Positions 6,351 to 64,000 of a stretch of DNA of 64,000 nt are shown in pieces (positions within the stretch are counted from its first letter, which is position 1; each line of letters starts with the position of its first letter). Position numbers and translations under genes: made by a program. The notes under the pieces are model-generated. The model was not told the origin of the DNA and made no database searches. It worked only from the letters and a program-made list of their open reading frames with translations. The DNA comes from Shigella phage ESH35. The stretch lies in the sequence record ON528745; one strand, written 5' to 3'.

Positions 6351-6616
6351 AATTTATTAATATTTCTATTACTATTGAAAATTATGGCATTTTCTATGTT
6401 GACCAATACATGAAAATTTCATTTTTCCCAAATAAGACTGGTATTGGATATTGGGAAAGCCATGTTTCTGAATTAAATGAAAGTGAATATGTTAGTACAC
6501 ATGAAAAGTTTTTAGACTTTTTATATCATGCTGATCTAACTAGTCATTATATAGATATTCATGAATTTAAAAAGATGATGGAAAAAGTATTCCAAGCATA
6601 CTGTTTACTTAGATAA
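6347..6616 (+). CDS. hypothetical protein (89 aa)
   Basis: ATGA overlap with previous ORF. Confidence 0.45.
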   Translation: MKFINISITIENYGIFYVDQYMKISFFPNKTGIGYWESHVSELNESEYVSTHEKFLDFLYHADLTSHYIDIHEFKKMMEKVFQAYCLLR

Positions 6617-6638
6617 CTGATATCCTCTATGCTTTAAG

Positions 6639-19874: not shown

Positions 19875-19903
19875 TTTACAAGACTGTTCTTCTGTGGTAC
19901 TAT
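19875..19903 (+). promoter_or_regulatory. T4-type early promoter with conserved leader
   Basis: TTTACA, 17 bp, TGgTACTAT; leader shared with copies at 38436 and 48910. Confidence 0.6.
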
Positions 19904-19940
19904 ACAACTATCAACTACTGATACAGATTTGGAGAATAAA

Positions 19941-24165: not shown

Positions 24166-25593
24166 GTGGTAGAAATTATTCTTTCTCATCTTATATTTGA
24201 TCAAGCTTATTTTTCAAAAGTTTGGCCATATATGGATTCAGAATATTTTGAAAGTGGTCCAGCTAAAAATACATTCAAATTAATTAAATCTCATGTTAAT
24301 GAGTACCATAGCGTTCCATCTATTAATGCGTTAAATGTTGCATTAGAAAATAGTTCATTTACTGAAACAGAATATTCTGGTGTAAAAACACTTATTTCAA
24401 AACTGGCTGATTCTCCGGAAGACCACAGCTGGTTAGTAAAAGAAACAGAAAAATATGTTCAGCAAAGGGCGATGTTTAACGCCACATCTAAAATAATTGA
24501 AATTCAAACTAATGCTGAGCTTCCTCCGGAAAAACGAAATAAGAAAATGCCGGATGTTGGTGCTATTCCTGACATCATGCGCCAAGCATTATCAATTTCA
24601 TTTGATAGTTACGTTGGTCATGATTGGATGGATGACTACGAAGCACGTTGGCTATCTTATATGAATAAAGCTCGTAAGGTTCCATTTAAACTCAGAATTC
24701 TAAACAAAATTACGAAAGGCGGAGCTGAAACTGGAACGCTGAACGTTTTAATGGCTGGCGTTAACGTTGGTAAGTCATTAGGATTGTGTTCATTGGCAGC
24801 AGATTATTTACAGCTCGGACATAATGTTCTTTACATTTCCATGGAAATGGCAGAAGAAGTCTGCGCTAAACGTATTGATGCTAATATGCTTGATGTTTCT
24901 CTTGATGACATTGATGATGGGCATATTTCTTACGCTGAGTATAAAGGAAAAATGGAAAAATGGCGTGAGAAATCTACTCTCGGTCGTTTAATCGTTAAAC
25001 AGTATCCTACTGGTGGAGCAGATGCTAATACATTTCGATCGCTTTTAAACGAATTAAAGCTCAAGAAGAATTTTGTTCCAACAATCATTATTGTCGACTA
25101 TCTGGGTATTTGTAAATCTTGCCGCATTAGAGTTTACTCAGAAAATAGTTACACAACTGTTAAAGCCATTGCAGAGGAATTACGTGCTCTTGCTGTTGAA
25201 ACCGAAACTGTTCTTTGGACTGCAGCACAGGTTGGTAAACAAGCTTGGGATTCTTCTGATGTTAACATGAGCGATATTGCAGAATCTGCCGGTCTTCCAG
25301 CAACAGCTGATTTTATGCTTGCGGTCATTGAAACCGAGGAGTTAGCAGCTGCTGAACAACAACTTATTAAGCAAATCAAATCACGATATGGTGATAAGAA
25401 TAAATGGAATAAGTTTTTGATGGGTGTTCAAAAAGGAAATCAGAAATGGGTAGAAATTGAACAAGATTCTACTCCAACCGAAGTGAGTGAAGTAGCAGGT
25501 TCACAACAGATTCAGGCTGAACAGAATCGCTATCAAAGAAACGAATCAGCTCGAGCTCAGTTAGATGCTTTGGCAAATGAATTAAAATTTTAG
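24166..25593 (+). CDS. 41: replicative DNA helicase (DnaB-like)
   Basis: 475 aa, GTG start after AAGGAG; Walker A GVNVGKS. Confidence 0.97.
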   Translation: MVEIILSHLIFDQAYFSKVWPYMDSEYFESGPAKNTFKLIKSHVNEYHSVPSINALNVALENSSFTETEYSGVKTLISKLADSPEDHSWLVKETEKYVQQRAMFNATSKIIEIQTNAELPPEKRNKKMPDVGAIPDIMRQALSISFDSYVGHDWMDDYEARWLSYMNKARKVPFKLRILNKITKGGAETGTLNVLMAGVNVGKSLGLCSLAADYLQLGHNVLYISMEMAEEVCAKRIDANMLDVSLDDIDDGHISYAEYKGKMEKWREKSTLGRLIVKQYPTGGADANTFRSLLNELKLKKNFVPTIIIVDYLGICKSCRIRVYSENSYTTVKAIAEELRALAVETETVLWTAAQVGKQAWDSSDVNMSDIAESAGLPATADFMLAVIETEELAAAEQQLIKQIKSRYGDKNKWNKFLMGVQKGNQKWVEIEQDSTPTEVSEVAGSQQIQAEQNRYQRNESARAQLDALANELKF

Positions 25594-25594
25594 T

Positions 25595-25622
25595 TTACAA
25601 GCTGACAAGACTATGGTATAGT
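25595..25622 (+). promoter_or_regulatory. early-promoter-like element
   Basis: TTTACA, 16 bp, TATAGT. Confidence 0.45.
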
Positions 25623-25651
25623 AGTCTTGTTGGTTAAATGAGGAGATTGTT

Positions 25652-29428: not shown

Positions 29429-29457
29429 TTTACATGTCAAAATGAGTGTGGTATAAT
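29429..29457 (+). promoter_or_regulatory. T4-type early promoter
   Basis: TTTACA, 17 bp, TGgTATAAT. Confidence 0.6.
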
Positions 29458-35805: not shown

Positions 35806-36040
35806 ATTAAGTTGGTATCAGTTTAAATCTCTTATGGCAAATGTTAAAGCTGTCATTGAAGAAAATCCAGGACCTGAAAATGTAACTATTCGTGAAAAAG
35901 CTTCAAAGATAGTATACAGTCTTGAAGAGATGCAAAAAGATATTGAATCTATGGCAAAATTTATTGATGAGCCCATTAATAAAGTTTATATCCAAGATTA
36001 TACTGTAGGTCAAATTCGCGATTTAGCGAGGAAAGTTTAA
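35798..36040 (+). CDS. hypothetical protein (80 aa), paralogue of previous ORF
   Basis: ATG ORF; ATGA overlap with dexA. Confidence 0.45.
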   Translation: MIELSWYQFKSLMANVKAVIEENPGPENVTIREKASKIVYSLEEMQKDIESMAKFIDEPINKVYIQDYTVGQIRDLARKV

Positions 36041-36723
36041 TGTTTGATTTTATTATAGATTTTGAAACGATGGGAAGCGGTGAAAAAGCAGCTGTTATTG
36101 ATTTGGCTGTAATTGCTTTTGACCCTAACCCGGAAGTTGTTGAAACATTCGATGAACTAGTTTCACGTGGCATTAAAATTAAATTTGACTTAAAAAGTCA
36201 AAAAGGACATCGTCTTTTTACTAAAAGCACTATCGAATGGTGGAAGAATCAATCTCCTGAAGCTAGAAAAAATATTGCACCATCAGATGAAGATGTAAGC
36301 ACTATCGATGGTATTGCAAAATTCAATGATTACATCAATGCACATAACATCGATCCTTGGAAATCTCAAGGTTGGTGCCGTGGAATGTCGTTTGATTTTC
36401 CAATTTTAGTCGATCTCATTCGCGATATTCAACGTCTTAACGGCGTTTCCGAGAATGAGCTTGATACATTTAAGTTAGAACCGTGTAAATTCTGGAATCA
36501 ACGCGACATTCGTACTAGAATTGAAGCACTTCTCCTTGTTCGTGATATGACCACTTGTCCTCTTCCAAAGGGAACTTTAGATGGATTCGTTGCACATGAT
36601 TCTATTCATGACTGTGCGAAAGACATCCTGATGATGAAGTATGCTTTGCGATACGCTATGGGTCTTGAAGATGCTCCGTCAGAGGAAGAGTGCGATCCTC
36701 TGTCTCTTCCAACAAAACGATAA
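36040..36723 (+). CDS. dexA: exonuclease A
   Basis: 227 aa; DEDD-type motif FETMG near N-terminus. Confidence 0.85.
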   Translation: MFDFIIDFETMGSGEKAAVIDLAVIAFDPNPEVVETFDELVSRGIKIKFDLKSQKGHRLFTKSTIEWWKNQSPEARKNIAPSDEDVSTIDGIAKFNDYINAHNIDPWKSQGWCRGMSFDFPILVDLIRDIQRLNGVSENELDTFKLEPCKFWNQRDIRTRIEALLLVRDMTTCPLPKGTLDGFVAHDSIHDCAKDILMMKYALRYAMGLEDAPSEEECDPLSLPTKR

Positions 36724-36730
36724 AAAGTTG

Positions 36731-36759
36731 TTTACTTCCTCGGTTAGTTGTGGTATTAT
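36731..36759 (+). promoter_or_regulatory. T4-type early promoter
   Basis: TTTACT, 17 bp, TGgTATTAT. Confidence 0.55.
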
Positions 36760-36786
36760 AACACCATAGCTACTGAGGATAATAAA

Positions 36787-37299
36787 ATGAAAATTTATCG
36801 TGTTGAATCATCGTTTAGCGCATTAAATGATGATAGTGGTATAATGAAAATTAGGCAAGAGTTATGTGTTCAATCAACTCCTTATCGTGGATTTGATTCT
36901 ATGAAAACTCGAACTTGGCTAAAATTTTGCGGTATTAATTCATCGTCATTTCATCATCATAGCGATAATTATGAAAGCCATGAAAGTATTCCTATTCCAC
37001 ACGATGATAAGTTATTAGTTGAAAATGCTAATGATGCTATTAAAACTAAATGGAATAAAGATTATTCACGAATTGAAAATTATATTCCATTGTGGTTTAT
37101 TGCATTATATCATTTTGCTTTCGCTAGTGAATATGATATAATGAGATGGTTTACTCGAGAAGAGCGTGAAGACTTAAAAGATCGTGGAATGTACATTGCG
37201 ATTTATGAAGTGCCAGATGATCAAGTTATCATTGGTGGGCATCAAGTAATGTTTCGCAAATCGCATGCCGAATTAAAAGGCTTTATTACCTTAGATTAA
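36787..37299 (+). CDS. hypothetical protein (170 aa) with His-rich segment
   Basis: internal ATG downstream of promoter; HHHSDNYESHESIPIPH. Confidence 0.45.
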   Translation: MKIYRVESSFSALNDDSGIMKIRQELCVQSTPYRGFDSMKTRTWLKFCGINSSSFHHHSDNYESHESIPIPHDDKLLVENANDAIKTKWNKDYSRIENYIPLWFIALYHFAFASEYDIMRWFTREEREDLKDRGMYIAIYEVPDDQVIIGGHQVMFRKSHAELKGFITLD

Positions 37300-37308
37300 A
37301 GGAAAATT

Positions 37309-37809
37309 ATGATTAAAATTAATACTACGTATCAAATGAAAAAACCATCTGAAATTGATTTCCAGACAATGTCGAATACGACTGATAGCAAGTTTTGGGA
37401 ACTTCTTGGTACAACTGGCGGATATCCTTTTACTGTTATTAGTGTTAATAGCGGAATTCTCATTGGTACAGTGTACATGGAAATTAGAAACTATTATGGA
37501 AGGGTATCATCATTCATCATCTATGAAGAAGATTTCAATTTATTGACAGAAATTGAAAAAGAAGAACAAGAAAAATCCCATATTGATATGGATTTAGTTT
37601 CTATGTATGTAACACCAGTTGAAAAAATTGAAGACCCGACTGATTTGTTGTGTAAGGCAGTTTATATTCGTCGTCCATTCGCGAATCCGATTGGCGGTTG
37701 GGTAACTGATCAGTGGATTGAAGATGGTGTTGAACTTCTGAACGTAGTTCATGCTGGAGAGTACTCTGTAGTTCCTCGCAGCGCAGTGATTAATGTTCGT
37801 GTAAGCTAG
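37309..37809 (+). CDS. hypothetical protein (166 aa), paralogue of 37883..38374
   Basis: shared C-terminal region (TDQWIEDGVELLNVVHAGEYSVVP vs TDQWVEDGVKLYNAVFLGTYKVIP). Confidence 0.5.
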   Translation: MIKINTTYQMKKPSEIDFQTMSNTTDSKFWELLGTTGGYPFTVISVNSGILIGTVYMEIRNYYGRVSSFIIYEEDFNLLTEIEKEEQEKSHIDMDLVSMYVTPVEKIEDPTDLLCKAVYIRRPFANPIGGWVTDQWIEDGVELLNVVHAGEYSVVPRSAVINVRVS

Positions 37810-37838
37810 TTTACAAACTCTTGGGATCAGAGTATAAT
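37810..37838 (+). promoter_or_regulatory. T4-type early promoter
   Basis: TTTACA, 17 bp, TATAAT. Confidence 0.6.
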
Positions 37839-37882
37839 GGTCCTGCGGAGTATAAAATCTTTTTAACAAGTGAGAGATAATT

Positions 37883-38374
37883 ATGAATATTAATATCGGT
37901 GAAATTGCTCGTGTATCTGATAAATCCCGTTCTAAAGCAGCAGGAAAATTGGTTGAAGTCGTAAGCATTCAGCTTAAACATGGTGTTAAAGATGAAGATT
38001 CTGAAGTAAAAGTGCGTATCATTCCTAAAGATGGAATGTCTAAACCTCAGTTTGGTTATGTTCGATGGAAATTTCTTGAGCCTGCGTTTTTGAAAGCTGT
38101 TCCCGCTAAAGGAATTGAAACGATTGATACTTCGCATGTAGGTGTAGACTTTAAGTGGAAACTTGGTCAAGCTATCAAGTTCGTTGCTCCTTATGAGTTT
38201 GAATTTACTGAAGGTGAGGAAGGTGTTGTTAACCGTACTCGCGCTATGTGTGCATACATTACTGATCAATGGGTAGAAGATGGCGTTAAGTTATACAACG
38301 CGGTATTTTTAGGAACATACAAAGTCATTCCTGAAAGTTGGATTAAACACTACAGCAAAGCTCGCTATGCATAA
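37883..38374 (+). CDS. hypothetical protein (163 aa), paralogue of 37309..37809
   Basis: see previous ORF. Confidence 0.5.
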   Translation: MNINIGEIARVSDKSRSKAAGKLVEVVSIQLKHGVKDEDSEVKVRIIPKDGMSKPQFGYVRWKFLEPAFLKAVPAKGIETIDTSHVGVDFKWKLGQAIKFVAPYEFEFTEGEEGVVNRTRAMCAYITDQWVEDGVKLYNAVFLGTYKVIPESWIKHYSKARYA

Positions 38375-38405
38375 AGTTTAATTTTTTTTTCATAAAACTA
38401 TATAC

Positions 38406-38448
38406 ATCAGTAGTTGATTATGGTACTATATCAATATCAACTACTGAT
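38406..38448. repeat. 13-bp perfect inverted repeat (ATCAGTAGTTGAT / ATCAACTACTGAT) flanking a -10-like TGGTACTAT
   Basis: read directly; right arm equals the leader of the early-promoter cassettes. Confidence 0.7.
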
Positions 38449-38472
38449 ACAGAAAACAACTTGGAGAATAAA

Positions 38473-38742
38473 ATGGAAAACTTAATTATCATCGAGCAAT
38501 CTTTCAACGATTATGGTATGGCTTACGGTTATCGTGCGATAATGGAAGATTCTCGTGGATGTGTTATCGATATTGCTGAATGTAAAGATTTACTGCAGCT
38601 TTTGAAGATTGTTCGCAAAAATTGGGATTGTGAAAACATTAAAGCTCGTGTTGTTACAGAAGAAGAAACTGTTTTTCATGATGTAAAATTCGCTAAAGGT
38701 GCTGCTACTCTTCTGAAACGTATCGCTCCACTGTTCAATTAA
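38473..38742 (+). CDS. hypothetical protein (89 aa)
   Basis: GGAGA SD and leader identical to that of ORF 19941. Confidence 0.45.
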   Translation: MENLIIIEQSFNDYGMAYGYRAIMEDSRGCVIDIAECKDLLQLLKIVRKNWDCENIKARVVTEEETVFHDVKFAKGAATLLKRIAPLFN

Positions 38743-38755
38743 TGAGGAAATTGTA

Positions 38756-38971
38756 ATGAAACGTAAAATTGTTCAGAATTGCACTAATGACGAATTTGAA
38801 GATGTATTATTTGATCCAGATTTGGTAGTGGTTCAAAAGGAACATACCGTTAAGTTTACTCACTTGACTTCGGTTTATGTGTATGAAAAGGTTGGTGATA
38901 AACAACCAATTTACGGTGTATTTCGTGAAATTACTGAAGATGGCACAACTTACTGGAAGGAAATTTATTAA
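38756..38971 (+). CDS. hypothetical protein (71 aa)
   Basis: ATG with GAGGA SD. Confidence 0.45.
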
Positions 38972-39396
38972 TGGCTATTAAATTTGAAGTTAATAAATGG
39001 TATCAATTTAAAAATAAACAAGCTCAAGAAGATTTTATCAAGGACCATACTGAAAACGGAATTTATGCACGACGTCTTGGTATGGAACCTTTTAGAGTTA
39101 CAGATATTGACTATCTTGGTCGTCCTACTAAAATTATGTCATTTACTGGCACAATTGGATATGCAACACATGGTGATATCCTTGACGAAAACTTTATCTG
39201 GCTCTCTACTAACGAAGCCGAGTTCTTTGATGAAGTGGAAAATCCATATCAGGCAGCTGAAGAGCAAGAGCAGGAAGAGAAAGAGCAAGAACAAATAGAA
39301 GATTTCACAGAATTTCCTGTCATGAAAGTTACTATTGAAAATAATGAACAGGCATGGTCCTTGTATCAAATGCTGAAAGCACACTTTAAGGAATAA
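38971..39396 (+). CDS. acidic protein (141 aa) at the T4 goF position
   Basis: size and synteny; [12 protein letters not shown] tract. Confidence 0.4.
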
Positions 39397-39398
39397 TT

Positions 39399-39575
39399 AT
39401 GCCAACGTATGATTATAAATGCCAATCCGAAGATTGCGGGCATGAATATGAAAAAATTAAAAAGATTTCTGAACGAGAAAATGATGTTTGCCCTAAATGT
39501 CATCGTTTGTCTACTCGTCGGCCTTCTGCTCCTAAGCATGTGAATGGCGGTTTTTACGATTTACTTAAAGGGTGA
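39399..39575 (+). CDS. zinc-ribbon protein (FmdB-like, 58 aa)
   Basis: CQSEDCGH...CPKCH double CxxC pattern. Confidence 0.5.
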   Translation: MPTYDYKCQSEDCGHEYEKIKKISERENDVCPKCHRLSTRRPSAPKHVNGGFYDLLKG

Positions 39576-39577
39576 TT

Positions 39578-39952
39578 ATGTTTAAAATCGGTAAGAAATA
39601 TCGTGTTCGCGAAGGTGAAGAAAAGAAATATCTACTTTCTGCTAGTAATAGGAATGGTTCTATTAATGCCGTAATATCTACAAGCGAATTTATCGTTGAA
39701 GATATGAAAGGTCATAATGTTACAATGATTAGTACAGCAACTAGCAGAAATGCTGGAAAAATTCTTCACAGTCTGCGGAGTGAAGTTCTAATTTATGATG
39801 AAGAATTTGACTTCTTCGAAGAAGTTCCTGAAGATTTTGATTTTGAATGCACTATCACTATGAAATCTGGTGACCCTCTTTCTTTTACAGTTAAAGATGA
39901 AAGAAGCCGTTTGAGAATTATTAGTCTCCTTCAAGCCATTAAATTTAAGTGA
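39578..39952 (+). CDS. hypothetical protein (124 aa)
   Basis: internal ATG of track ORF 39572..39952. Confidence 0.45.
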   Translation: MFKIGKKYRVREGEEKKYLLSASNRNGSINAVISTSEFIVEDMKGHNVTMISTATSRNAGKILHSLRSEVLIYDEEFDFFEEVPEDFDFECTITMKSGDPLSFTVKDERSRLRIISLLQAIKFK

Positions 39953-40218
39953 AAATTATGAAATATATTAATCGTTCTATCGCGGCATTAGTATTAGCAG
40001 TGTCTTTAGCAGGATGTACTGATGCTGATAATGCAACCAAAGTTTTATCTTCAAGTGGTTTTACTAATATTGAAATCACTGGATATAATTGGTTTGGTTG
40101 TTCTGAAAATGATTTCCAACATACTGGATTTCGTGCTATTGGACCTACTGGGCAGAAAGTAGAAGGAACAGTATGTTCTGGGCTGTTCTTTAAGGATTCA
40201 ACTATTCGTTTTAAATAA
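39949..40218 (+). CDS. putative lipoprotein (89 aa)
   Basis: signal peptide with lipobox LAGC. Confidence 0.5.
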   Translation: MKIMKYINRSIAALVLAVSLAGCTDADNATKVLSSSGFTNIEITGYNWFGCSENDFQHTGFRAIGPTGQKVEGTVCSGLFFKDSTIRFK

Positions 40219-40219
40219 A

Positions 40220-40233
40220 AGGCCTTCGGGCCT
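40220..40233 (+). terminator. UUCG-tetraloop hairpin
   Basis: AGGCC-ttcg-GGCCT then TTT. Confidence 0.5.
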
Positions 40234-40260
40234 TTAGCTTTATGATTGCCGGAGTATAAT
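40234..40260 (+). promoter_or_regulatory. middle-promoter-like element for gene 39
   Basis: TTAGCTTTA, 12 bp, TATAAT; same module as upstream of gene 47. Confidence 0.45.
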
Positions 40261-40284
40261 ATTCCCGAAACCAAACGAGGATAA

Positions 40285-42105
40285 GTGATGATTAAGAATG
40301 AAATTAAAATTCTGAGCGATATTGAACATATCAAAAAGCGTAGCGGCATGTATATTGGCTCTTCTGCTAATGAAATGCATGAGCGCTTTCTGTTTGGTAA
40401 ATGGGAAAGTGTTCAGTATGTACCTGGTCTTGTTAAGCTTATTGATGAAATTATCGATAACTCAGTAGATGAAGGTATTCGTACTAAGTTTAAATTCGCG
40501 AATAAAATTAATGTTACCATTAAAGATAATCAGGTAACAGTTGAAGATAACGGTCGCGGTATTCCACAAGCGATGGTTAAAACACCTACTGGTGAAGAAA
40601 TTCCTGGTCCTGTTGCTGCCTGGACTATTCCAAAAGCAGGTGGTAACTTCGGTGATGATAAAGAACGCGTCACCGGTGGTATGAATGGTGTTGGTTCTAG
40701 TTTGACAAACATTTTTTCTGTGATGTTTGTCGGTGAAACTGGCGATGGTCAAAATAATATTGTAGTTCGTTGTTCAAATGGTATGGAAAATAAATCCTGG
40801 GAAACTATTCCTGGAAAATGGAAAGGAACTCGTGTTACTTTCATTCCTGATTTTATGTCATTTGAAACTAATGAGCTGTCTCAGGTTTATCTTGACATTA
40901 CACTGGACCGTCTCCAGACACTTGCTGTCGTTTATCCTGATATTCAATTTACTTTTAATGGTAAAAAGGTTCAGGGCAATTTTAAGAAATATGCACGACA
41001 GTATGATGAACATGCTATTGTTCAAGAACAAGAAAATTGTTCTATTGCGGTTGGTCGTTCACCGGATGGTTTTCGTCAATTAACTTACGTGAATAACATT
41101 CATACTAAGAATGGTGGCCATCACATTGACTGTGTTATGGATGATATTTGCGAAGACCTTATTCCACAAATCAAACGTAAATTCAAAATTGATGTAACTA
41201 AAGCACGCGTTAAAGAATGTTTGACTATCGTTATGTTTGTTCGTGATATGAAAAACATGCGATTTGATTCTCAAACTAAAGAGCGTTTGACTTCTCCATT
41301 TGGCGAAATTCGTAGTCATATTCAACTTGATGCTAAAAAGATTTCACGCGCTATTCTAAATAATGAAGCAATTCTGATGCCGATTATTGAAGCTGCGTTG
41401 GCTCGTAAATTGGCGGCAGAAAAAGCAGCAGAAACTAAAGCAGCTAAAAAGGCTTCTAAAGCTAAGGTTCATAAACATATCAAAGCGAATCTTTGTGGTA
41501 AAGATGCTGACACTACTCTTTTCTTGACTGAGGGTGATTCTGCTATCGGATATCTTATTGATGTTCGTGATAAAGAACTTCATGGTGGTTATCCATTGCG
41601 TGGTAAAGTTCTTAACAGCTGGGGTATGTCATATGCTGATATGCTTAAAAACAAAGAACTATTTGATATTTGCGCAATCACTGGATTAGTTCTTGGTGAA
41701 AAAGCTGAAAACTTGAATTATCATAATATTGCTATTATGACCGATGCTGACCATGATGGTCTAGGAAGCATTTATCCTTCTCTGCTCGGGTTTTTTAGTA
41801 ATTGGCCAGAATTGTTTGAGCAAGGACGAATTCGCTTTGTCAAAACTCCTGTAATCATCGCTCAGGTCGGTAAAAAACAAGAATGGTTTTATACAATCGC
41901 TGAATATGAGAGTGCCAAAGATGCTCTACCTAAACATAGCATCCGTTATATTAAAGGACTTGGCTCTTTGGAAAAATCTGAATATCGTGAGATGATTCAA
42001 AATCCAGCATATGATGTTGTTAAACTTCCTGAGAACTGGAAAGAGCTTTTTGAAATGCTCATGGGAGATAATGCTGACCTTCGCAAAGAATGGATGAGCC
42101 AGTAG
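40285..42105 (+). CDS. 39: DNA topoisomerase II large (ATPase) subunit, unsplit
   Basis: 606 aa from GTG (605 from ATG 40288); GHKL ATPase motifs. Confidence 0.93.
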   Translation: MMIKNEIKILSDIEHIKKRSGMYIGSSANEMHERFLFGKWESVQYVPGLVKLIDEIIDNSVDEGIRTKFKFANKINVTIKDNQVTVEDNGRGIPQAMVKTPTGEEIPGPVAAWTIPKAGGNFGDDKERVTGGMNGVGSSLTNIFSVMFVGETGDGQNNIVVRCSNGMENKSWETIPGKWKGTRVTFIPDFMSFETNELSQVYLDITLDRLQTLAVVYPDIQFTFNGKKVQGNFKKYARQYDEHAIVQEQENCSIAVGRSPDGFRQLTYVNNIHTKNGGHHIDCVMDDICEDLIPQIKRKFKIDVTKARVKECLTIVMFVRDMKNMRFDSQTKERLTSPFGEIRSHIQLDAKKISRAILNNEAILMPIIEAALARKLAAEKAAETKAAKKASKAKVHKHIKANLCGKDADTTLFLTEGDSAIGYLIDVRDKELHGGYPLRGKVLNSWGMSYADMLKNKELFDICAITGLVLGEKAENLNYHNIAIMTDADHDGLGSIYPSLLGFFSNWPELFEQGRIRFVKTPVIIAQVGKKQEWFYTIAEYESAKDALPKHSIRYIKGLGSLEKSEYREMIQNPAYDVVKLPENWKELFEMLMGDNADLRKEWMSQ

Positions 42106-42134
42106 TTTACTTTACCACAAGGATGTGGTATAAT
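42106..42134 (+). promoter_or_regulatory. T4-type early promoter
   Basis: TTTACT, 17 bp, TGgTATAAT. Confidence 0.6.
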
Positions 42135-46368: not shown

Positions 46369-46397
46369 TTTACATACCACAAGGACCGTGGTACTAT
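46369..46397 (+). promoter_or_regulatory. T4-type early promoter cassette
   Basis: TTTACA, 17 bp, TGgTACTAT; modules shared with 46875 and 48881. Confidence 0.6.
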
Positions 46398-46425
46398 TAC
46401 CCTATCAACTACGGAGGAGCGGAAA

Positions 46426-46867: not shown

Positions 46868-46874
46868 AAAGTTG

Positions 46875-46903
46875 TTTACAAGACTGTTCTTCCGTGGTAC
46901 TAT
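46875..46903 (+). promoter_or_regulatory. T4-type early promoter cassette
   Basis: TTTACA, 17 bp, TGgTACTAT. Confidence 0.6.
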
Positions 46904-46931
46904 TACCCTATCAACTACGGAGGAACAGAAA

Positions 46932-47045
46932 ATGAAAAAGATTGTTAAAGCTATATGGAATGTAGTTATAATACTAATAGTTTTGAGTATATTCCCAATC
47001 GTTTTAATGATTGATGTATTAAACGTTTACTTTGGATTTATGTGA
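46932..47045 (+). CDS. small membrane peptide (37 aa)
   Basis: GGAGGA SD, single transmembrane segment. Confidence 0.3.
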   Translation: MKKIVKAIWNVVIILIVLSIFPIVLMIDVLNVYFGFM

Positions 47046-48880: not shown

Positions 48881-48909
48881 TTTACAACCAAAGCATACTG
48901 TGGTACTAT
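48881..48909 (+). promoter_or_regulatory. T4-type early promoter cassette upstream of motA
   Basis: TTTACA, 17 bp, TGgTACTAT. Confidence 0.6.
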
Positions 48910-48950
48910 ACAACTATCAACTACTGATACAGAATTACGGAGATTAGAAA

Positions 48951-63825: not shown

Positions 63826-64000
63826 TTAAACTCCGCATGCCTGCTGGTGGTGAAAGATATATTGATGGTAAATCAGTTTATAAATTATACTTAATGATAA
63901 AACAACATATGAATGGAAAGTATGATGTAATTAAGTATAATTGGTGCATGCGGGTGTCTGATGCCGCTTATCAAAAGCGAAGGGATAAGTATTTTTTCCA
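63822..64000 (+). CDS. 59: helicase loader gp59, 5-prime part (runs off window)
   Basis: ATGA overlap with gene 33; N-terminus MIKLRMPAGGERYIDG matches recalled T4 gp59. Confidence 0.8.
   Translation, partial: MIKLRMPAGGERYIDGKSVYKLYLMIKQHMNGKYDVIKYNWCMRVSDAAYQKRRDKYFF

Follow-up and report, generated by a model that had tools for sequence, protein, structure and literature searches.

PeSLs (promoter-early stem-loops) were defined in phages RB49 and phi1 as early promoters in intergenic positions that are joined to a stem-loop (Arbiol et al. 2010, PMC2839356). The stem-loop most commonly lies between the -35 and -10 elements or over the -10, and PeSLs have been proposed both as attenuators of upstream transcription and as sites of recombination; one PeSL stem-loop cut lacZ expression to the level of the strong rrnB T1 terminator (PMC2839356). 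The class has since been extended to PST/T4 (Comeau et al. 2014, PMC4122927), and its T-even analogues sit on T4 early promoters and have weaker, AT-rich stem-loops (PMC2839356; PMC4122927). A related arrangement exists at the T4 genes e, soc, 49 and I-TevI, where a promoter lies within the region of the 5' strand of an RNA structure: the long RNAs fold and the promoter-proximal ones do not (PMC3014915). Here we analysed 64,000 nucleotides of Shigella phage ESH35 (ON528745), referred to below as the window, and describe an inverted repeat at 38406-38448. Judged by its structure and context, the element appears to be a further member of the PeSL class, of a sub-type that overlaps the -10 and that is present in T4 itself.

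The repeat consists of a left arm, ATCAGTAGTTGAT (38406-38418), and a right arm, ATCAACTACTGAT (38436-38448), which form a perfect 13-bp inverted repeat. As the original prediction had stated, the two 13-mers are exact reverse complements of each other, the 17 bp between them include TGGTACTAT, and a T9 run (38382-38390) lies just 5' of the repeat. Counting perfect repeats with loops of 3-40 nt, the window holds only two with arms of at least 13 bp, compared with a mean of 0.03 and a maximum of one in 60 first-order Markov resamples of the window. The other one, AATTATACTTAAT ... ATTAAGTATAATT at 63883-63942, has a 34-nt loop and TATAAT in its right arm. Exact copies of the right arm of 38406-38448 occur at 19910 and 48916, each after the -10 box of an early promoter, and close variants at 46404, 46910 and 26132. 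Copies and variants all stand at an equal distance after a TGGTACTAT-type -10 and ahead of a Shine-Dalgarno sequence (SD) and an ATG, in agreement with the description of this arm as the canonical cassette leader. The left arm had been called an inverted copy of that leader, and indeed it is the sole inverted copy in the window and is itself unique there; promoters with the right arm and no left arm exist elsewhere in the window. Complementarity of the arms ends exactly at 13 bp, and no inverted -10 or leader follows beyond. The -10 and leader recur as a block at about 19895-19922 and 48901-48928, with variants elsewhere, and the repeated promoter plus leader provides homology for exchange between cassettes.

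The window derives from a T4-like phage (Tequatrovirus) that is 98-99% identical to AR1, Sf22 and RB18 in the repeat region. Genes are arranged in the order dexA, a motB.2-like ORF, a motB.1-like ORF, motB, an 89-aa ORF, cef, goF, 39.2, 39.1 and 39. The repeat sits in the 98-bp gap between the co-directional upstream gene motB (37883..38374, plus strand, as are all features given here) and the 89-aa ORF (38473..38742; phrog_3720, annotated as of unknown function), which is followed by cef (38756-38971) and then goF. In this gap, the repeat is embedded in what we predict from the sequence to be a T4-type early promoter, since the expected parts are all in place: a -35, a 17-bp spacer with an extended -10, an A/T tract, and an SD with a start codon. 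The -35 was assigned as ATATAC (38400..38405) by alignment with the other cassettes of the window, which places it in register with GTTTAC, the T4 early consensus. It matches the consensus at 4/6 positions and is invariant in Tequatrovirus, and the corresponding sequence in orthologous promoters of other genera is GTTTAC, GTATAC or TGTAC. In the TTGACA register the -35 reads TATACA (38401-38406) and the spacer is 17 bp. Upstream of it, the tract TTTAAT9CATAAAAC, which includes the T9 run (38382..38390), is A/T-rich and resembles an UP element. The left arm (38406..38418) fills the spacer between -35 and -10, a segment in which sigma-70 reads no bases, and would be transcribed only in RNA begun upstream. 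The loop (38419..38435) holds the extended -10 TGgTACTAT (38421-38429, hexamer 38424-38429), a sequence shared with five further cassettes of the window. It also forms a 5-bp helix at its apex, 38421-38425 with 38429-38433. The right arm (38436..38448) is the conserved cassette leader and forms the first 13 nt of the predicted transcript, which would start at about 38436-38437. The SD GGAG (38463-38466) and the ATG (38473..38475) of the 89-aa ORF, which is predicted to be driven by this promoter, are both outside the hairpin. Other early cassettes of the window share the -10 TGGTACTAT and the 13-nt leader letter for letter and have a matching layout. The T4 records NC_000866 and AF158101 contain only CDS features and no promoter annotation at the repeat locus, and a literature search found no T4 Term-seq or TSS-mapping paper.

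The nearest source of RNA that reads through the repeat is the early promoter of motB (37809..37838), with GTTTAC, an 18-nt gap in this register and TATAAT; it is an annotated promoter in phages wV7 and Kha5h. A consensus terminator scan of 36600-39100 revealed no terminator-like site between motB and the repeat and nothing at the repeat on either strand. The motB promoter has a weaker -10-enclosing hairpin of its own (37826-37860, ACTCTTGGGATCA ... GGTCCTGCGGAGT), which is kept with compensating and wobble changes in Gaprivervirus and Dhakavirus (both ~925-955 of the extracted regions) and in PP01 (~935-968). GGAG, the SD of the downstream ORF, is also the cleavage motif of the T4 endoribonuclease RegB. 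It is followed here by A-rich sequence, and after a RegB cut at 38463-38466 the motB message would have a new 3' end 15-16 nt away from the hairpin. The 89-aa ORF is missing in T4 (NC_000866 ~6483-6575) and several relatives, apparently through deletion between short AAAAT-type repeats inside the ORF; a remnant frame of 4-11 codons stays, with 11 codons in T4.

Folding of read-through RNA, a check proposed with the original prediction, yields a hairpin with a 13-bp stem. RNA 38376-38490 folds to -25.7 kcal/mol (z = -5.8 versus 200 shuffles), and above the 13-bp stem the predicted fold continues with an internal loop (2x2), an apical helix of 5 bp (UGGUA/UAUCA) and, at the tip, a CUA triloop. 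The outcome differs with the origin of the transcript. A locally started RNA, beginning with the right arm, is predicted to be unstructured (-0.6 kcal/mol), whereas a read-through RNA with both arms forms a predicted 43-nt hairpin of about -20 kcal/mol between motB and the ORF. Because both arms are contained only in RNA from the motB promoter or further upstream, the hairpin is restricted to read-through RNA. The duplex of spacer and leader is worth -19.3 kcal/mol compared with -6.6 +/- 2.3 kcal/mol for shuffled spacers (p = 0.002). In the minimum-energy fold, the T9 run also pairs weakly with the SD region, with a small effect on the cost of opening the SD.

According to constrained partition functions, opening costs more in read-through than in local RNA by 1.1 kcal/mol for the SD and by 2.8 kcal/mol for SD-AUG. 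At promoters without a hairpin, the same difference ranges from -0.4 to +3.8 kcal/mol for the SD and reaches up to +7.2 kcal/mol for SD-AUG (at 19903), and in two other cassettes of the window that do mask, 36759 and 46903, SD opening is 11-16 kcal/mol costlier in read-through RNA. Masking of the SD by the repeat hairpin was rejected because the extra cost of 1.1-2.8 kcal/mol is at the level of hairpin-less promoters. The proposal of an RNA hairpin sequestering the leader of the downstream ORF was therefore half right: structural conservation and covariation (see below) agree with a hairpin specific to read-through RNA, but only the first 13 nt of the leader are paired, and SD and AUG stay open at an extra cost of 1-3 kcal/mol.

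Comparison of this junction in related phages, which had likewise been suggested, showed that the repeat is not absent from relatives. T4 has an identical repeat between motB and cef (T4 coordinates about 6582-6624), and 475 of the 497 public phage records that cover at least 80% of a 47-nt query match it at ≥99%. In the three variant records that were fetched, differences are confined to the loop. Among 13 distinct Tequatrovirus sequence variants, 0/26 arm positions vary, and the T-run, five loop positions and three leader positions after the right arm do. The T-run measures T9 here, T5 in T4 and T6 in many relatives. The repeat is thus real, non-random and conserved. Within Tequatrovirus there is invariance only and no covariation, and part of the invariance, that of the right arm, is accounted for by the conserved leader. 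In phage ECO07P2 (121-167 of the extracted region) the hairpin loop TACTATACAACTATCAAC replaces TACTATATCAATATCAAC and both arms are kept. Other early cassettes typically have this ACAACT version of the loop, and its presence in ECO07P2 suggests gene conversion or exchange between cassettes with retention of the arms. In PP01 and RB51 (~1480-1960 of the extracted region), motB and the cassette are separated by an extra motB-like ORF; similarity to the window restarts at GCATAAAGTTT, the last motB codons plus the 5' edge of the cassette, and this junction looks like a recombination joint.

Regions upstream of cef were also gathered from an annotated phage collection and from IMG/VR. The first distant BLAST hits (80-85% identity) were paralogous cassettes upstream of e.8-like genes rather than orthologues and were rejected. 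Upstream of cef, nine or more further T4-related genera also have a promoter with a hairpin whose apex holds the -10, usually GATACTAT; these comprise Mosigvirus, Dhakavirus, Gaprivervirus, Kanagawavirus, Marfavirus, Karamvirus, Moonvirus and Roskildevirus together with further IMG/VR lineages. The stems differ between lineages, for example GGTCTAT/ATAGACC, GGGCTAT/ATAGCCC and GGGTTAT/ATAACCC, or GGTAGGAGCGTG/TATGCTCCTACC, GGTAGGAGCATG/TATGTTCCTACC and GGTGTAGGAC/GTTCCTACACC. Seventeen distinct sequences were aligned without gaps and with the hairpin apex as anchor, a choice that favours structure somewhat; 86% of cells are paired and 8 of the 13 pairs have changed on both sides. The covariation score is 0.456 versus 0.195 for shuffled alignments (0/500 shuffles reach 0.456), and slid controls stay at or below 0.218. 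The slid controls, and pairs of sister sequences that are one compensated change apart, make the conclusion of covariation robust. The stems of the other genera contain 30 G-U pairs but a single C-A mismatch, and seven of the G-U pairs (7:1 versus A-C) lie outside positions fixed by the promoter consensus. From this asymmetry it follows that selection acts on the sense-strand RNA and not on duplex DNA or a cruciform. Comparative sequence data thus indicate that RNA is the selected structure, with the pairing rather than the sequence conserved across genera.

The orthologous hairpins of the other genera end 14-36 nt before the ATG and leave the SD free. They are followed by A/C-rich tails of the AUCAAC/AAAC type, in which the first 8 nt contain 0-2 U. 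Individual pairs cannot be equated with those of Tequatrovirus, the stem register of which is different. A covariance model of the 17 other-genera hairpins gave the Tequatrovirus hairpin 10.3 bits (E about 7), which is noise level for a model without power; run over the window with no filters, the same model returned no hit better than E = 0.48. Given this score and the shift in register, the homology is one of position and architecture and not of individual pairs. The promoter upstream of cef on IMG/VR contig 2706795719 (~315-350), from a distant relative, has the stem AAAAGAGG/CCTCTTTT and then a U-run around the -35 GTTTAC, and by its sequence this is probably a true terminator overlapping a promoter.

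Embedded hairpins recur in the window. The energy of the duplex between spacer and downstream sequence, compared with shuffled spacers, identifies the design at 5 of about 19 candidate early promoters, namely those with -10 ends at 25622, 36759, 38429 and 46903 (p ~0.002-0.003 each) and at 37838 (p = 0.03-0.08). Context was examined for four of them (36759, 37838, 38429 and 46903), and all lie close behind a co-directional ORF with no upstream terminator. The promoters at 29457 and 48909 have a canonical upstream terminator with a T6 run and no embedded hairpin. At 36730-36790 and 46874-46935 the spacer complements the SD region of the gene that follows (TTCCTCGGTTAG.. with ..CTACTGAGGA, and CTGTTCTTCCGT with ACGGAGGAACAG), and according to the modelled opening costs these two cassettes appear to apply the masking principle of e, soc and 49 at early promoters. 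Similar SD-pairing cassettes are found in Mosigvirus Shf125875 (~1915-1975 of the extracted region) and in phage F2 (~1925-1985). The early promoter at 25590-25650 (GTTTAC ... TATAGT), which surfaced as the top hit of the covariance model, has a perfect 9-bp stem, ACAAGACTA/TAGTCTTGT, around its -10. A small hairpin, CCACAAGGA(T/CC)GTGG, lies entirely within the spacer of the early promoters at 42111-42128 and 46374-46391, and the same motif occurs at the cef promoter of Jiaodavirus phages.

The GenBank record of phage ASO78A labels the same hairpin as a WebGeSTer terminator. However, an intrinsic terminator was rejected: G-C pairs make up only 4/13 of the stem, the formal loop measures 17 nt, the tail reads ACAGAAAA, and there is no U-tract in any lineage, whereas true terminators in the window carry T6 runs. 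An antisense terminator for rightward late RNA was rejected as well, as the minus-strand tail GUAUAUAGUUUUAU has no U-tract and the G-U pairs of the other genera become C-A mismatches on that strand. A search of 36000-41000 against Rfam 15 with E up to 1 gave no match.

We favour, although with as much reservation as confidence, the reading of the element as a PeSL-type cassette of promoter plus stem-loop in which the hairpin is a boundary element that acts on read-through RNA only. Locally started RNA would contain the right arm alone and stay open, while RNA from the motB promoter or beyond would contain both arms and fold in the space between motB and the ORF. There, the hairpin could pause or attenuate the polymerase, block 3'-to-5' exonucleases, or both. 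Upstream motB messages would then end or gain stability at the hairpin, and the block of 89-aa ORF, cef and goF would be expressed mainly from its own promoter, uncoupled from promoters upstream. As there is no U-tract, any attenuation would be non-canonical. A structure whose arms use the spacer and the first transcribed nucleotides is also the most economical one to add, since the intergenic gap is not lengthened. Promoter layout, the folding difference and selection on RNA-level pairing can be read from the sequences themselves; the boundary role is what we infer from them.

The main rival fits the same data and gives the hairpin the opposite effect. It holds that the hairpin folds about 43 nt of naked, A/U-rich, untranslated RNA, keeps Rho and RNase E off it and promotes downstream expression. 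The missing U-tract in every lineage is compatible with such protection, as is the distribution of embedded hairpins, which are found where read-through is expected and are absent after real terminators. Moreover, T4 delayed-early RNA is sensitive to Rho and nucleases, and a modifier of this sensitivity, goF, is encoded in the same operon (PMC2988021). However, this argument is purely inferential, about 55 nt of unstructured RNA would be left on each side of the hairpin, and the sole experimental test of a PeSL stem-loop gave reduced downstream expression (PMC2839356). We regard protection of this kind as unlikely, if still worth serious consideration. Translational masking, in which a read-through structure hides the start of the downstream ORF and only promoter-proximal RNA is translated, has the precedent of e, soc, 49 and I-TevI, with the same layout of a 5' arm upstream of the proximal start (PMC3014915). 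The minimum-energy fold does add an outer helix between the U-run and GGAGAAUAAAAU, and the siblings at 36759 and 46903 as well as the Mosigvirus and phage F2 cassettes do pair their spacer with an SD. Yet the additional 1.1-2.8 kcal/mol for opening SD-AUG is far under the 11-16 kcal/mol of true masking cassettes, the U-run of the outer helix varies between T5 and T9, and orthologous hairpins elsewhere stop 14-36 nt short of the ATG. Masking at this promoter is therefore very unlikely.

Explanations at the level of DNA, or without any function, have to account for the same pattern of conservation. The repeat could have no role in RNA and instead mobilise the cassette as a site of recombination or cruciform formation, as in PeSL shuffling or via mini-circles, or be a scar of such an event. 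The genome has repeated copies of the block of -10 and leader, the chimeric loop of ECO07P2 points to cassette exchange, and the genes on either side differ between relatives. However, the homology for recombination comes from promoter and leader and not from the left arm, of which the window has no second copy, and a preference for G-U over A-C of 30:1 (7:1 off the consensus-fixed positions) would not be tolerated by a symmetric duplex or cruciform, so that we consider this quite unlikely. The more specific idea of a scar between two oppositely oriented cassettes, raised in the original prediction, is not supported, as the complementarity stops at exactly 13 bp and the hairpins that other genera have at this place have unrelated arms. 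An absence of function would mean that the left arm arose once, for instance when template switching turned a quasi-palindrome into a perfect one, and is still there only through the high similarity of Tequatrovirus genomes. In favour of this, the region is 92-99% identical among the sampled relatives, covariation is lacking within Tequatrovirus, and a perfect stem without G-U pairs is compatible with a recent templated origin. Nevertheless, neighbouring non-coding positions vary while none of the 26 arm positions does in 13 variants, other early promoters differ freely in their spacers, and at least nine other genera have an equivalent hairpin at the same junction, all of which makes a functionless repeat decidedly improbable. 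The proposal that we find hardly credible is an operator, likewise raised before, at which a dimeric phage or host protein binds two 13-bp half-sites around the -10 and represses or activates the promoter. In its favour are the perfect dyad centred on the -10 and the strict conservation of both arms in Tequatrovirus. But the centres of the half-sites are 30 bp apart, some other promoters have the right arm and lack the left one, and in other genera the arms are unrelated in sequence and their pairing is kept by compensatory changes, with G-U allowed and outnumbering A-C 30:1. Furthermore, the review PMC2988021 describes no site-specific repressor of T4 early promoters.

With its many tandem early promoters, T4 has most genes on several overlapping RNAs. 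If the hairpin is a boundary element, a structure that exists in read-through RNA only would permit these RNAs to be treated differently gene by gene with no added intergenic length. To the picture of PeSLs, our analysis adds that the stem-loop upstream of cef is kept by compensatory change across many genera, that the G-U pattern points to RNA as the selected form, and that a U-tract is consistently missing. The label of terminator, which stems from software and from the analogy with RB49, may thus misdescribe how the element works, and the hairpin should not be annotated as a Rho-independent terminator. A wider generalisation, which we put forward as a long shot, is that promoter-embedded hairpins are a general switch by origin of transcript in T4-type early regions: read-through RNA would be folded and hence masked, cleaved or ended, and a promoter's own RNA would be open. 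If true, the principle known from the late promoters of e, soc, 49 and I-TevI would extend to early promoters across the subfamily. Still bolder would be a variant in which the dyad extrudes in DNA, presents the -10 as a single-stranded loop and accelerates open complex formation on freshly injected DNA.

In comparison with known systems, the element resembles REP-type stem-loops, which are intercistronic stabilisers that block 3' exonucleases, in being a stem-loop without a U-tract between co-transcribed genes; unlike these, it is superimposed on a promoter. With e, soc, 49 and I-TevI it shares the absence of the left arm, which lies upstream of the predicted start, from promoter-proximal RNA. 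However, those genes have late promoters and a buried SD and/or AUG, whereas the promoter here is early and SD and AUG are accessible; the sibling cassettes at 36759 and 46903 do fit that type. The T-even elements at the internal-protein locus, as far as they are described in a later paper, also combine a T4 early promoter with a stem-loop that is weaker, AT-rich and variable in size, and they flank variable genes, but at a different locus (Repoila et al. 1994 via PMC2839356). The closest match is with the PeSLs. As in these, the stem-loop is joined to the promoter, one arm lying in the spacer, the other spanning +1 to +13 and the loop containing the -10. The intergenic site is plastic, with motB and an 89-aa ORF on either side, the latter deleted in T4 and others, and an extra motB-like ORF in PP01 and RB51. 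Conserved repeated copies of -10 and leader would be able to recombine, as the chimeric loop of ECO07P2 suggests. Shared with PeSLs are, moreover, the A/T-rich tract, the early sigma-70-type promoter, the SD and ATG, the repetition in the genome and the position next to an ORF that is present or absent. The PeSLs of RB49 and phi1 differ in their near-consensus TTGACA/TATAAT and their polyG/polyC stems, whereas the stem described here is AT-rich, encloses the -10 and has a transcribed right arm; terminator activity, too, has been shown for one RB49-type stem-loop only. The stem-loops of PST/T4 were placed just upstream of the promoter (PMC4122927), whereas the present one is built around the -10.
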